NCBI GenBank assembly: GCA_965242865.1 | Contig: CBDETK010000013.1 | Location: forward strand, 544,001-608,000 | Length of the DNA: 64,000 nucleotides | Reading direction: 5' to 3' | Source of the DNA: Candidatus Latescibacterota bacterium | GTDB taxonomy: Bacteria; Latescibacterota; UBA2968; UBA8231 | In this document: piece by piece, positions 48,016 through 53,048 of the stretch | Position numbering within the stretch: position 1 is the stretch's first letter | Layout: the number at the start of each line of letters is the position of its first letter | Position numbers and translations under genes: made by a program | Notes under the pieces: model-generated | The model's input: the letters and a program-made list of their open reading frames with translations, nothing else | Databases searched by the model: none | Told to the model about the DNA's origin: nothing

Positions 48016-51002
48016 GGCTCTTAGCGTTGCTCGTCCTTTGCTCGGCGTCGCTGGCCACAGTCCAAGCCCAACAGGGCCACCGCGTCACCAGCCGCTCGGT
48101 AGAAGTCAACCGGGCCGCGCACTGGCGCAACTGGCAGTTGCCCACCCACGCGGTGAAGGTGTCGCCAGCGGGCGTGGTTGAGCCGCACTTTTTCCGCGCC
48201 CGCTTCAACCTGCTCGACGATCTAGCGACCTTTACCCGCCCCATCCCGGATCTGCGCCGCCGCCGCAATCAGACCGCCATCCTCAACATCGACAGCACCC
48301 GAACCCGCGACGTAAAAGGCGAGATCATCCTCGACCGCAAGGGCAACCCCATCTACTCCTACTTCTTTCGCCCGGGCATCAGTCGCGTCGGCTCAAACTC
48401 AGCCGCGGCCGCCCACATCCTCGACGCGGACCCAACCACCTTTTGGGAGCCCGACCCGCAGGCCCCGCTCGACGACTGGTGGATCGAACTGGACTTGGGC
48501 CGCGTGGTGGCCGTCGATTCCCTCGTCCTCCACTTTGTCGAGGAAGAGTTGGGCGACCCCTTCTTCCAGTTCCGAGTCCTCGCCGCGCCCGACCAAGAGC
48601 CGGTGTGGGAAAACGCCGACAAAATCACCTTTGAGCGAATCGCCCACACCAAGGCCCCCAACCGCGACCAACGCACCTTTCGCATCGGCCTCGAACAACT
48701 CGACGCCGACCCGGATTGGCGCGGCAAAATGGTGCAGACCATCCGCATCGTAGTCAGCGATACCCGCGGCGAGCGCGGCGAGCGGCTCAGCGAAGCGGAA
48801 TGGCAGGCCCTGCCCGCGGACGAGCGCGGGGCGATCGTCTATTTCATTCGCGACGAACAGGGCTTTGAAGAGCCGGTCGAGCGCGCGGTTTATGAAAGCC
48901 TCGATGCCCCGCGCCAAGGCCGCCTCGATTACTACCGGCGCGAGCGGCCGCGCCTCGCCGGAATCGAGGTGCATGGGTTTGGCGACAACATCAGCAGCGG
49001 CTTGGTGGCCGGCGGCGGCCAGCTCGACCTGACCGGCGACGGCTTTTTGCCGGGGCCGGCTTTTGACGCGGATTTCAACACCAGCTTCCTGCACCTCGTG
49101 TGGTCGCCGACCATTGACCGCGGCGTGCTCACCGTTGACTTGGGCGCGTCGTTTTGGCTCGACGCCATGCGGATTTCCTCGGCCCGGCCCCAGCCTTTTA
49201 TCGACGGCTACCTGATCCGCGGCTCCGACGGCTCGCGCGACACCCGCGGCAAAATCAAGTGGGCGCGGCTAAGCCCCCGCTTTCGCGAGGACAACAGCAC
49301 CGATCGCTTTGAGCACATCGTCGATACCTACCCCCACAGCCCCAAGCTCCGCTTCCTCGAAGTGAGCATCGTCTCGTCGGACCCGCGCCGCCGAGGGGGC
49401 TACAACACCGGGCCGACCATTGCCGAGTACCAGCTTTTTTCCACCGGCTACCCCGCGCAAGTCGCGCTGACTTCCGACCTGATCGCGCTGCCTGGGGCGC
49501 GCAACTTTGGGGCCATCACTTGGGAAGCCGAGACGCCCCCGGGCACGACCGTCGCCGTCCGCACCCGCACCGGCGACTTGCTGGGCAAGGTCATCCGCTA
49601 CTTCGACAAAACGGGCAACGAAATCGCCTACGATGCGTGGAAAAACCTCTTGGGCAGCTTCAAGGGGCCAGCCGACACCTCCTTCGTCCCCACCAGCGGC
49701 TGGAGCCCGTGGAGCCGCGCCTATCAGCAGCCCGGCGACATGGTCACCTCCCCCGGCCTACGCAAGTTCATGCAGTTCCAAGTCGAGATGATCACCACCG
49801 ACCGCACGGTCGCCTCGTCAATCCGCTCCCTCGCCGTCGAGCTCCTCCACCCCGTAGCCCAACGCATCACCGCCGAGTTGTGGCCGCCCTCCGTGGCGGC
49901 CTCCGGGGTGCGGGAAACCTTTGACGTCTTCGCCCAGCCCACTTTCATCGAGTCGCCAGCGCGCTCGCGCAGCACGGGCTTCAACGAAATCCTGCTGACC
50001 ATGCCGGCCTCGGACCAGCTCGAACTCGTGGAGCTGGGCATTGCCGGCCCGGCCGGCGAACGAGTCTTTCGCCCCGCCGCCGCCGACTCAGCGCGAATCG
50101 CGCTGTTGGCCAATGGCGGCGACTCGATCTGGGTGCGCCTAGACGACGCGCTCAACATCCTGCCAGCGGCCCGCCGCACGTACCATCGCATTGCCCTCGA
50201 AGGCGAAGAGGTGCCGGTTACGCAAGGCGGCTTGCCGCTTACGGGCGCGGCCTATGGCACCCTCGACCAAGACGAGCGCGGCGCCATCCGCTACTTCCGC
50301 CGCACCGGCGACCGGCTCAGCGAAATCGACCAAACTAGCTACCAGAGCCTGCCCAGCGCGGAGCAAGGCCCGATCCGCTACTTCCGCATTCTGCGCGGCG
50401 ACGGCGCCCAGTTCCCCTTTAACGCGCTCGGCGACTCGCTCGACTTGGTCGCGTACAATCGCCTTTCCGCGCCCCAGCGCGGCCTAGTCGCCGGCCCGGG
50501 TCCGCGCCTGCGCGTGCGTCTGTCCGCCCCGGTCTTTCTCAACGGCACGACCTTGCGCCTGTTCGTGCGCCACGCGGCCACCGCCAGCGCCGACGCTGCG
50601 TGGCAGGCCGTTGAAGCGGGCAACGCGGCCGACAGCGTCGCCAGCAACACGCTTTCGATCAACGTCCCCATCGACGGCGAGCTCGTTCAGGGCCTCGCCG
50701 TCGGTCCCAACCCGTTTACGCCCAACGGCGACGGGATCAACGACGCGGCTGAAATCTCGCTGGAGATCTTCAAGCTCACGTCGAGTCGCCGCCTCCAAGT
50801 GCGCATGTACGCGCTCGATGGGCGGCGGGTTTGGCAGCGCGAGGAAATGGTGTTGAGCGGCCGCACCGCAGTGCGTTGGGACGGCAGCGATGACCGGGGC
50901 CGCCGAGTGCCGCCCGGGCTGTATCTGTGCCAAGTCCAGCTCGAGGCCGACGCCACTGGCTTCCCGACGAGCCAAGCGCGGGTTATCGCCGTGGCCTACT
51001 GA
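48012..51002 (+). CDS. Large secreted protein with discoidin-like segment and FlgD-Ig-like C-terminal domain
   Basis: Signal peptide; LDADPTTFW...WIELDLGR; C-terminal PNPFTPNGDGIND...WDGSDDRGRRVPPGLYL. Confidence 0.85.
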   Translation: MRLLALLVLCSASLATVQAQQGHRVTSRSVEVNRAAHWRNWQLPTHAVKVSPAGVVEPHFFRARFNLLDDLATFTRPIPDLRRRRNQTAILNIDSTRTRDVKGEIILDRKGNPIYSYFFRPGISRVGSNSAAAAHILDADPTTFWEPDPQAPLDDWWIELDLGRVVAVDSLVLHFVEEELGDPFFQFRVLAAPDQEPVWENADKITFERIAHTKAPNRDQRTFRIGLEQLDADPDWRGKMVQTIRIVVSDTRGERGERLSEAEWQALPADERGAIVYFIRDEQGFEEPVERAVYESLDAPRQGRLDYYRRERPRLAGIEVHGFGDNISSGLVAGGGQLDLTGDGFLPGPAFDADFNTSFLHLVWSPTIDRGVLTVDLGASFWLDAMRISSARPQPFIDGYLIRGSDGSRDTRGKIKWARLSPRFREDNSTDRFEHIVDTYPHSPKLRFLEVSIVSSDPRRRGGYNTGPTIAEYQLFSTGYPAQVALTSDLIALPGARNFGAITWEAETPPGTTVAVRTRTGDLLGKVIRYFDKTGNEIAYDAWKNLLGSFKGPADTSFVPTSGWSPWSRAYQQPGDMVTSPGLRKFMQFQVEMITTDRTVASSIRSLAVELLHPVAQRITAELWPPSVAASGVRETFDVFAQPTFIESPARSRSTGFNEILLTMPASDQLELVELGIAGPAGERVFRPAAADSARIALLANGGDSIWVRLDDALNILPAARRTYHRIALEGEEVPVTQGGLPLTGAAYGTLDQDERGAIRYFRRTGDRLSEIDQTSYQSLPSAEQGPIRYFRILRGDGAQFPFNALGDSLDLVAYNRLSAPQRGLVAGPGPRLRVRLSAPVFLNGTTLRLFVRHAATASADAAWQAVEAGNAADSVASNTLSINVPIDGELVQGLAVGPNPFTPNGDGINDAAEISLEIFKLTSSRRLQVRMYALDGRRVWQREEMVLSGRTAVRWDGSDDRGRRVPPGLYLCQVQLEADATGFPTSQARVIAVAY

Positions 51003-51110
51003 TCGAGGAGGAGGAGCTTGCGACGATCACAATCGGTCCTGCATACTAGTTAGGTGGTAACGGTCAATCCGGCCCACGCTTCTTGGCTGTATCCTCACTG
51101 TGAGCATAGC

Positions 51111-51600
51111 GGGAAGTTATATACTTGATACCGGAAATTAGGGCCGTTATAATATGCTAACCATCTAACGGAGGATGAATGATGACACAACCTATCGTCA
51201 GCAACTACGACCTGTTCCGCTTGTTTTCTGGCGAAGACGAGGAGTCAGCACGCACCCGGTTGGAATCCGTGCGTTGGGGCGGCCATATAATTTGTCCCCA
51301 TTGCGGCAGCCACAACATCTATACTAGAACTGGCAAGCGTACGGGGATCCATGACTGCCGCGATTGCCTCTCGTACTTCAGCGTCCGGACGGGGACGGTC
51401 TTTGAGAACTCACGCATTGCGTTGCGGGATTGGATTCACGCAATTTATCTACTGATGACGGCACACAAGGACATAAGCAGCATCCAGTTGTCAAAGGAGA
51501 TGGGCGTAACTCAGAAAACGGGATGGCTTATACTGCACAGACTGCATACCGCTTGCGGGGGGAATATGGAAGCCCTGCGTGGAATGGTTGGAGGTGCGGG
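51111..51600 (+). mobile_element. Truncated IS1595-family element: candidate left end plus transposase Zn-ribbon/HTH, DDE domain absent
   Basis: RWGG..CPHCG...CRDC...FSVRTGTVFE.S...SSIQLSKEMGVTQKTGW..LHRL, ending at LRGMV where the E.DE motif should follow; GGGAAGTTATATACTTGATACC upstream. Confidence 0.8.
51125..51153 (+). promoter_or_regulatory. Near-consensus sigma70 promoter of the IS1595/RM unit
   Basis: TTGATA (51125-51130), 17 nt, TATAAT (51148-51153); GGAGG RBS at 51170-51174. Confidence 0.75.
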
Positions 51601-52471
51601 TCCAATGAGCAGGCTCGACGCCGGCTTGAGCCACGTCATGTCCTATCGCCCCGAGCATTTAACTGAGAACCCGTGTATCCTCGTCCAAGGCGACGCCACA
51701 AAGAGGGACACCCTGAAACGCGAATGCGCGGACTTGATCGTTACATCGCCGCCTTACAACATAGGCAAAGCCTACAATGGGTATGCGGAAGCCGATGAAA
51801 AATCCTACGACGATTATTTGAAGTTCTCTAAAAAGTGGCTGCGGAACTGCTACTTTTGGACTCGACCAACCGGCCGTCTATGTGTCAATGTGTCAATTGA
51901 CAAAAATCGCAACGGAAAAGTCCCACTATCCGCCGATATAACCAAAATAGCAATGGATGCCGGATGGTCTTATCATGCTACCATTATATGGAACGAGGGA
52001 AACATTAGCCGTCGGACGGCTTGGGGCAGTTGGAAATCTGCTAGCGCACCGCACATCATCGCGCCGGTTGAAACAATTATTGTCCTCTATAAGGGCCGCT
52101 GGAAGCGGGAACGACAGGGTACGAGTGACATTAGCGGAGAAGAGTTCAAGGATTGGGTATTGGGAGTTTGGAATTTTAACGGTGAAAGTGCAAAACGGAT
52201 TGGGCACGAAGCCCCGTTCCCACGTGCCTTACCGGAGCGGTGCATTAAGTTGCTATCTTTTCCCGGCGATACCGTGCTCGATCCATTTGCTGGCTCTGGT
52301 ACCACCTTGATAGAGGCGGTGGAACGCGGGCGGAGTGCGCTTGGGATCGAGCTAGAAAAGAAATACTGCGACCTGATTAAGCAAAGGATTGAAAAGGAAT
52401 GCAAAGTGAGATTGGAGACATCACAACAGGTGACGCCGGCGAAATCTACACTTCTCTGCTGGGCGGCATAG
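51179..52471 (+). CDS. IS1595 transposase N-terminus fused in frame to a beta-class N4/N6 DNA methyltransferase
   Basis: Single 430-aa ORF; TSPPYN (motif IV) precedes DPFAGSGTT (motif I); HEAPFP. Confidence 0.9.
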   Translation: MMTQPIVSNYDLFRLFSGEDEESARTRLESVRWGGHIICPHCGSHNIYTRTGKRTGIHDCRDCLSYFSVRTGTVFENSRIALRDWIHAIYLLMTAHKDISSIQLSKEMGVTQKTGWLILHRLHTACGGNMEALRGMVGGAGPMSRLDAGLSHVMSYRPEHLTENPCILVQGDATKRDTLKRECADLIVTSPPYNIGKAYNGYAEADEKSYDDYLKFSKKWLRNCYFWTRPTGRLCVNVSIDKNRNGKVPLSADITKIAMDAGWSYHATIIWNEGNISRRTAWGSWKSASAPHIIAPVETIIVLYKGRWKRERQGTSDISGEEFKDWVLGVWNFNGESAKRIGHEAPFPRALPERCIKLLSFPGDTVLDPFAGSGTTLIEAVERGRSALGIELEKKYCDLIKQRIEKECKVRLETSQQVTPAKSTLLCWAA

Positions 52472-52980
52472 CTTCCTATCGCTCCGCGCATGAGTTCATA
52501 GGCACTGCCTACGAGATGTATCTATCCGGGTATCCAACTAACCCAAGCGTCAATGGCAAAGTATTTGAACTGCTCGTATTTGAAACCTTGGTACGCGAGA
52601 ATGTGCTCCCGTTTTACTATCAAGCGCAGATCTCCCTCGTTCCAAACGTCGTCTTCGATTTTGTCTGTTTTAACCTCAGAAAACCTGTCGTTCTCTCGTG
52701 CAAGGTCTCGTTGCGCGAACGCTACAAACAGGCCGACCTTGAAGGTACGGTCTTGCGGCAAGTCTATCGCTTGGCCGAAAGTTATCTCTTGACGTTAAGC
52801 GATGAACAAACGGGAGTTCAGGACAAGATCGTGAAAGGGGACATTGCTGGCTTGGCCTCTTGCATCCGAGCGGATTCCGAACAGTACACCCGCCTGCTGG
52901 CCGAACTCTCCAAACGCGAGTTTGTAGAGGCGAGCCCTATAAAGCCGTTGTGCGGTTCGTTATTTTCGTTATCCCAGTAA
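52399..52980 (+). CDS. Putative type II restriction endonuclease (PD-(D/E)XK variant)
   Basis: NGKVFE, VFDF...LSCKVSLRERYKQADLE resembling the K.S.RER motif of EcoRII/Cfr10I-type enzymes; overlaps the MTase 3' end. Confidence 0.75.
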   Translation: MQSEIGDITTGDAGEIYTSLLGGIASYRSAHEFIGTAYEMYLSGYPTNPSVNGKVFELLVFETLVRENVLPFYYQAQISLVPNVVFDFVCFNLRKPVVLSCKVSLRERYKQADLEGTVLRQVYRLAESYLLTLSDEQTGVQDKIVKGDIAGLASCIRADSEQYTRLLAELSKREFVEASPIKPLCGSLFSLSQ

Positions 52981-53048
52981 ACCGTTGCCTAACGCCCGGG
53001 GCCAATTATCATTAGCCCCGAGGTACTTCCACTAAGGAGGGATTGCAG

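Follow-up and report, generated by a model that had tools for sequence, protein, structure and literature searches.

The window analysed here, a 64,000-nucleotide stretch of a Latescibacterota contig, carries at 51179-52471 (+) a single open frame of 430 codons that joins the N-terminal domain of an IS1595 transposase to a DNA methylase. The N-domain (51179..51592, +) comprises a zinc ribbon and a three-helix helix-turn-helix (HTH), as delineated by Pfam, NCBIfam, alignment, and a structural model. It is followed in frame by a beta-class amino-methyltransferase (51605..52471, +; Pfam), in which the SPPY motif stands before FxGxG; its structurally solved relatives are N4/N6 methylases. Pfam placed PF12760 (Zn_ribbon_IS1595) at residues 20-63 of the fusion (E 2.7e-10; 40.5 bits against a cut-off of 25.4) and PF01555 (N6_N4_Mtase) at residues 185-401 (E 4.6e-45; model positions 2-220 of 221). 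Residues 77-137 matched the NCBIfam model of the IS1595 transposase (NF033547) over positions 1-64 of 215 only, and thus the DDE core is gone from the fusion; PF12762 (DDE_Tnp_IS1595) was likewise absent from the ORF. Aligned with 117 transposase fronts, the N-domain match ends one residue before the first catalytic ExDE motif, while the closest intact transposase found (P0126) shares 64% identity over the N-domain. SPPY is preceded by 189 residues in the fusion as compared to at most 87 in each of the top 118 other methylases. An earlier note on this DNA, made from its letters alone, had proposed an IS1595 zinc ribbon and HTH without DDE core in frame with an SPPY-type beta-class methylase, and Pfam and NF033547 agree with this description.

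The frame probably starts at 51182 rather than 51179, as GGAGG lies 7 nt upstream and the database call is 429 aa long (ribosome-binding site and start codons at 51179 and 51182, 51170..51184, +). Comparison of alleles defined a junction or linker (51557..51607, +) containing a G6 run, M130, M136, GGAGGT, and M143.

A CCGG-family endonuclease overlaps the methylase

On the same strand, and overlapping the methylase by 73 nt, a 193-aa ORF (52399..52980, +) could be assigned by alignment, profile, and model to the CCGG family of PD-(D/E)xK restriction endonucleases (E57, D87, K102, R106-E107-R108, and E115); the earlier note had recorded it as an overlapping endonuclease-like gene. E57, D87, K102, E107, R108, and E115 were invariant across 52 aligned endonuclease sequences, in agreement with the permuted PD...K...E active site and the R-(D/E)R motif described for CCGG-family enzymes (PMC6344858). 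PspGI was the best solved match to the endonuclease profile (E 8.7e-5), and the top six Foldseek matches to the model (pLDDT 92) were PspGI, EcoRII-C, and Ecl18kI (E 5.5e-5 to 6.5e-4), with 14-24% identity to the solved structures. RE_BsaWI was detected in 42 of the 52 family members, while the window protein scores below the curated cut-off. The 73-nt overlap (52399-52471) seems ancestral, as many stand-alone methylase relatives have the same C-terminal tail. Indirect evidence that the methylase and the endonuclease travel together came from the match lists of the two proteins: 25 of the 119 contigs in the methylase list recur in the endonuclease list, contigs being equated by identical size.

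Candidate targets within the family are CCGG, CCWGG, CCNGG, and WCCGGW. The solved structures closest to the endonuclease (PspGI, EcoRII-C, and Ecl18kI) cut CCWGG or CCNGG, and the unit contains no CCWGG. At a related locus (L100), a relative of the endonuclease and an HpaII-family nuclease share one C5 methylase, and the HpaII-family partner suggests a CCGG core for the target. From their family assignments, we infer a putative CCGG-core target for both the methylase and the endonuclease. The methylase subfamily of the window may also resemble M.Hpy99VIII. The latter is a beta-class m4C methylase of CCGG (PMC3936762). CCGG occurs 12 times in 1957 bp, once directly abutting the -35 box (51131-51134).

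L100:1390-4628 and L101:1345-4586 each carry in a row a small HTH gene, a C5 methylase, and two endonucleases, one of the window family and one of the HpaII family; the arrangement suggests two nucleases sharing one methylase. Avoidance of CCWGG in the genome (O/E 0.16) was set aside as evidence for the target because many palindromes are avoided. In G000:C13, many six-base palindromes are strongly avoided (O/E 0.05-0.25), and the genome holds many methylase-like matches.

The unit has one IS1595 end and lies in an intergenic site

Upstream of the fusion lies an IS1595 left end (51111..51132, +), recognized by its likeness to the ends of IS1595 elements in relatives, which open GGGAATTATATAC; it has one extra G near the tip and holds the -35 box of a sigma-70-type promoter, TTGATA-17-TATAAT (51125..51153, +). 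The promoter matches the consensus at 11 of 12 positions, although the scan that detected it yielded 2 sites as compared to 1.7 expected in shuffles, a count that by itself is at chance level. Of the 22 IS1595 ends of relatives that were listed, 6 place a TTGA box at the offset seen in the window. Thus, a -35 box inside the end belongs to the ordinary IS layout and, judged by this layout, is no sign of domestication.

The best inverted match to the left end downstream within the window reached only 13/20, a genome-wide fuzzy search for ends revealed no partner near the fusion locus, and judged against the empty sites of relatives, the 8-bp target duplication is missing. In contrast, two control loci (L024 and L103) had paired ends and 8-bp duplications. 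Both the near-consensus promoter with its -35 box in the candidate left end and the missing right end had been noticed before and held up here. The genome contains a single zinc-ribbon match, the fusion itself, and the unit is present in one copy. An intact IS1595 transposase was not found in the genome, which has only two broken DDE pieces elsewhere; as the assembly reaches 94% completeness, it may lack an intact copy that the genome has. Judged by its ends, the putative type II restriction-modification (RM) unit is immobile.

Three mini-elements of 44-50 bp (G000:C13:1048040-1048089, 3321067-3321110, and 3323788-3323831) consist of two IS1595 ends each. These six ends are of the window's type and near-perfect, and each mini-element lies directly 3' of a repeat-rich lipoprotein gene, behind an identical 40-bp flank. 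A solitary IS1595-type end with a TTGACA box is located just upstream of a short gene (G000:C13:5120276) and possibly represents an IS-donated promoter.

As had been noted earlier, the unit is lower in GC than its surroundings (0.49-0.53 as compared to 0.67 and 0.61 in the flanking genes) and splits an envelope cluster. The flanking genes are adjacent, with gaps of 18-148 bp, at 13 of the 14 relatives' loci examined, the 14th having one flank only. Comparison with these loci revealed a leader upstream of the IS end (51001..51110) that is absent from empty sites, and a right junction (52981..53042) at which host intergenic sequence is back at about 52985 with neither a right IS end nor an 8-bp duplication. 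Because the left boundary of the inserted DNA lies 60-110 bp upstream of the IS end, the unit did not land here through IS1595 transposition, a route that we rejected also for the missing duplication. Positions 51044-51052 duplicate 9 nt of empty-site sequence, and the cassette proper may start at 51053. The leader is common to related alleles from 51010 on; it had no match in 30 genus genomes and one weak 25-nt match among 75 family genomes. We weighed a 9-bp inverted pair (51056-51064 and 52981-52989) as possible element ends but discarded it, its right arm being partly host sequence.

The intergenic site itself (window 51002-53043; L004, L010, L012, L014, L090, L091, and L092) hosts differing inserts across the genus, including palindromic inserts of about 100 bp in four species and, in G009, a further 790 bp that include a gene. 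In G005, the break is flanked by short inverted repeats.

The fusion is shared by several alleles

The protein cluster of the fusion has four members, three of which carry the fused N-domain: the window protein, P0123, which differs from it by one change, and P0125, which is 96% identical and in frame, with three extra linker residues. The fourth, P0124, is the IS domain alone, encoded on a 1927-bp contig together with its partner P0004, which starts at M130. The tail of P0124 and the start of P0004 are two frames of one DNA, with the frame shifted by +1 in the run of G residues. The same contig has a second +1 shift, which fuses the methylase to the endonuclease; both shifts look like one-base homopolymer gains, and the presence of the second leads us to read both as probable sequencing-read errors. 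Linker length differs between alleles by 0, +3, and +7 codons. A further contig (run X12, record 10), spanning 51010-52966 of the window, has 149 differences, and its only gaps are one 9-nt in-frame insertion and one compensated pair; thus, the fused frame is kept without a net shift.

The stretch or parts of it occurred in runs from four studies, with four rows labelled sponge metagenome; no RNA dataset was listed as containing it. Run X10 contains two distinct cassette alleles (records 4 and 5; 81 and 55 differences in 560 bp). Their presence in one sample implies that two or more strains or species found together carry the cassette.

Searches for further fusions gave consistently negative results within their scope. 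Among the top 120 whole-protein matches, PF12760 was present only in the window's own cluster. A weak search with region 1-175 yielded 9 matches among 182 candidates and no independent fusion. No methylase fusion was seen in the best 150 of 13,023 representatives matching the IS domain, of which 75 were scanned with Pfam at 1e-4 and 47 at 1e-12, with the stretch after the HTH read by eye in all 150; distant fusions may exist beyond the reach of these searches. The 168 phylum genomes searched contained no second fusion at 1e-70 and no relative of the endonuclease, atlas searches returned generic methylase clusters or nothing, and single-protein scans of genome and metagenome contigs detected distant methylases only. 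Searches of the open-access literature turned up no described case in which a transposase domain is joined to an RM methylase. Because all three alleles have the same breakpoint and the same derived residues, they point to one fusion event. By these comparisons, the fusion is not unique but of single origin, in a narrow group of sponge-associated bacteria. Thus, the search for other such fusions that the earlier note had called for produced three alleles with a common breakpoint but no independent case.

A viral contig holds a complete element of similar architecture

L103:1009-3565, in a viral contig, is a complete IS1595 element of 2557 bp with 22-bp perfect repeats and an 8-bp duplication. 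It encodes an intact 309-aa transposase, a C5 methylase, and then a 37%-identical relative of the window endonuclease, whose stop codon falls within the right repeat. It is the only one of five viral-contig loci with the endonuclease to combine it with a transposase, the other four having no transposase match in the DNA examined. The element bears out the statement that IS1595 elements carry passenger genes, here an RM pair, and the IS1595 origin of the domain, left end, and promoter in the window is supported by the domain matches and by the ends in relatives. The RM unit is thus probably a deletion derivative of a complete IS1595 element like L103. Because its methylase is of the C5 rather than the beta class, L103 models the parent architecture and is not the direct parent.

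The parent would have been an IS1595 transporter element with the order left end, transposase, methylase, endonuclease, and right end. A deletion reaching from the first catalytic residue of the transposase to the methylase start would have joined the N-domain with the methylase, and loss of the right IS end would have left an immobile type II RM cassette. The IS promoter and ribosome-binding site would now drive the fusion methylase and the overlapping endonuclease; going by their families, the methylase may guard a CCGG-core site, which the endonuclease would cut in foreign DNA.

The transposase domain is constrained but has changed at conserved residues

The three alleles differ at 12 of 127 columns in the IS domain, at 19 of 268 in the methylase, and at 25 of 129 in the endonuclease. 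Pairwise, this corresponds to 7-9 of 127 residues (6-7%) in the IS domain as compared to 13-16% in the endonuclease. Only 1 of the 12 IS-domain changes falls in one of the 41 conserved columns (permutation p about 0.001). The dN/dS of the domain is about 0.2, with about 11 amino-acid-changing differences seen as compared to about 50-60 expected under neutrality; this estimate is rough, as it is derived from totals rather than aligned DNA and takes the X12 contig to be allele P0125, with which the insertion and three substitutions agree. Judged by these patterns, the IS domain is under selection, and the constraint implies that it is probably translated.

All alleles retain the four zinc ligands (C39, C42, C60, and C63). 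In a structural model of residues 1-138 (mean pLDDT 80), the zinc ribbon is predicted with confidence, and helices lie at 82-94, 101-108, and 112-125. The similarity of this model to HTH regulators is modest (Z 6-7), and a Z under 8 may reflect the common fold alone; Foldseek with the IS-domain model gave nothing at E 0.001. T111, Q112, K113, W116, and R121, at the start of the predicted recognition helix, are unchanged in the three alleles. In contrast, all alleles share five fixed replacements (P17S, K84D, G98D, A115G, and R123H), each in a column that is 75-99% conserved among transposases. All 117 references have R or K at position 123, and the replacements of R123, G98, and A115 occur in none of the 117. 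K84D, R96H, G98D, and R123H lower the charge, and the net charge of the N-domain is +3, +2, and +2 in the alleles as compared to a median of +9, with 2 of 116 references as low, in a reference set that includes broken IS copies keeping the first catalytic motif. The changed basic residues and low charge suggest a folded domain with weakened DNA contact. Such a domain fits both a leader on which the methylase depends and a repressor of tuned affinity.

Possible roles of the retained domain

We favor, at somewhat short of an even chance, the reading that the unit is an immobile RM cassette with an IS-supplied promoter and a folded leader whose DNA binding has weakened. The unchanged start of the recognition helix speaks against it, since it fits retained specific binding, but weighs little with only three sequences. 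Also against it, the constraint approaches that on the methylase, which is more than a merely carried domain would lead one to expect, and no domain-deleted allele was seen among the alleles found; the C5 methylase of L103 is a further difficulty. We regard the domesticated controller that the earlier note had put forward as possible though doubtful. Here, the zinc ribbon and HTH would bind the IS end over the -35 box, so that the fusion methylase represses its own operon in the manner of M.Ecl18kI through its N-terminal domain, and the substitutions would have tuned affinity in the transition from transposase to repressor. The break exactly at the domain boundary, the confident fold with its likeness to HTH regulators, the kept recognition-helix residues, a constraint near that on the methylase and above that on the endonuclease, and the IS end retained on top of the promoter all argue for this role. 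So does the lack of a separate controller gene (ORF of at least 60 aa) in the unit, whereas in L100 and L101 the methylase is preceded by a small HTH gene. However, R123, G98, and A115 have changed to residues not seen in any reference, the charge is near the bottom of the range, the HTH similarity may mean the common fold alone, and the fusion arose only once, in a narrow group. Moreover, a single end whose tip is degenerate is the sole candidate operator, and none of the 25 longest inverted repeats listed lay in the promoter. Of the controller proposal, then, a constrained domain shared by several alleles stands, with 12 of 127 variable columns as compared to 25 of 129 in the endonuclease, whereas the five changed residues, a domain less basic than 114 of 116 references, and the degenerate tip count against it.

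It is unlikely that the methylase is made mostly from an internal start (M130, M136, or M143), with the IS piece supplying the promoter only and the long frame being a relic. M130 follows a G-rich stretch (-9.4 kcal/mol with the anti-SD) and M143 follows GGAGGT (-10.6), and M136 lies 54 residues before SPPY, a distance close to that of native starts (median 52). All alleles retain M130 and M136, and starts there would account for the in-frame linker changes without recourse to the IS domain, though not for the constraint upstream; the contig in which a +1 shift splits P0124 from P0004 also fits, although its second shift points to read errors. A silent relic, however, would not give a dN/dS of about 0.2 or spare the conserved columns. 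The separate methylase start proposed earlier at M143 is not conserved: GGAGG at 51590 and the ATG at 51605 are where they had been placed, but the residue is Thr in P0004, and in the P0125-type allele the 9-nt insertion moves M143 to a distance of 18 nt from GGAGGT. GGAGGT (window 51586-51598) may be transposase V-E-V codons one base out of frame rather than a ribosome site of the methylase. We consider it very improbable that the domain serves the enzyme through nonspecific DNA contact or dimerization, or works in trans at IS1595 ends elsewhere in the genome, or that, separately, CCGG methylation provides a CfrBI-like feedback. The six near-perfect ends in the three mini-elements would be available for action in trans, while the low charge argues against nonspecific binding. 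In favor of methylation feedback, the CCGG at 51131-51134 directly adjoins the -35 box and is missing from all six related ends that have their -35 box in this position, and the HpaII-family partner in L100 points to a CCGG core; yet with 12 CCGG per 1957 bp a promoter-near site is not rare, the closest structures cut CCWGG or CCNGG, and the unit lacks CCWGG.

Under the favored reading of a weakened leader, early charge-lowering changes probably loosened the grip of the N-domain on the IS end, leaving weak promoter feedback at most. Its attachment to the essential methylase would keep the domain translated and folded, since a frameshift, stop, or misfolding would end protection.

Discussion

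Taken together, the sequence comparisons indicate that the fusion is real, not unique, of single origin, immobile, and under selection, whereas its regulatory role is putative. It looks like an early, putative case of a bacterium reusing part of a transposase. The methylase of an RM system must be tuned against a toxic nuclease and, to our knowledge, the source of RM control domains is mostly unknown. If the domain is a controller, a transposase DNA-binding module captured by an in-frame deletion within an RM-carrying IS1595 would let the methylase repress itself at the former element end. Such autorepression would exemplify a direct way for RM systems to acquire autoregulatory domains, with elements of the intact parent architecture still to be found in nature. 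The steps can be compared side by side: L103 as a complete IS1595 with RM genes, P0126 as an intact transposase of 64% identity, and the three fused alleles. This makes possible a direct test of whether a freshly captured transposase domain regulates or is merely carried along. Even the duller answer would have an IS hand a promoter and a start to a defence system and then be frozen.

Unlike C-protein–controlled RM systems, the unit has no separate small HTH controller gene among its ORFs of at least 60 aa. M.Ecl18kI/M.SsoII, M.EcoRII, and M.MspI are C5 enzymes. Methylases that repress their own promoter via an N-terminal HTH are known (PMC3874152 and PMC2760811), and the fusion shares with M.Ecl18kI/M.SsoII, M.EcoRII, and M.MspI an N-terminal HTH and a candidate site overlapping the promoter. 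It differs from them in that its domain is transposase-derived and includes a zinc ribbon and in that its methylase is a beta-class amino-methylase. In systems of the M.Ecl18kI/M.SsoII type, R and M are opposed around a shared control region, whereas M and R of the window are co-directional and overlap. In CfrBI, methylation of a promoter-region site controls expression (bioRxiv 10.64898/2025.12.04.692298); the window unit resembles it in that a candidate cognate site adjoins the -35 box, its target being putative, but its genes are not divergent.

The endonuclease shares the permuted PD...K...E site, the R-(D/E)R motif, and the fold with PspGI, EcoRII-C, Ecl18kI, and BsaWI of the CCGG family (PMC6344858), but has only 193 aa. 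Known IS1595 elements include ones that carry passengers and have 25-bp repeats and 8-bp duplications (PMC5704250 and PMC8101967). The transporter elements (tIS; MTnSag1/tISSag10 and tISCpe8; PMC5704250) and L103 resemble the unit in end type, in a promoter within the left end, in zinc ribbon and HTH, and in downstream passengers, which in L103 include the same endonuclease family. In contrast to these elements, the unit lacks the DDE domain, the right end, and the 8-bp duplication, is present in single copy, and has its passenger fused to a transposase remnant. SETMAR and the vertebrate transposase-capture genes (compare PMC9062482 and bioRxiv 10.1101/2020.05.07.082677) likewise combine the DNA-binding part of a transposase with a host-type enzyme and have an element end as a possible target, as in the window unit. 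The window fusion differs from these captures in being bacterial and young, in involving an RM methylase, and in having probably been formed by deletion inside one element.
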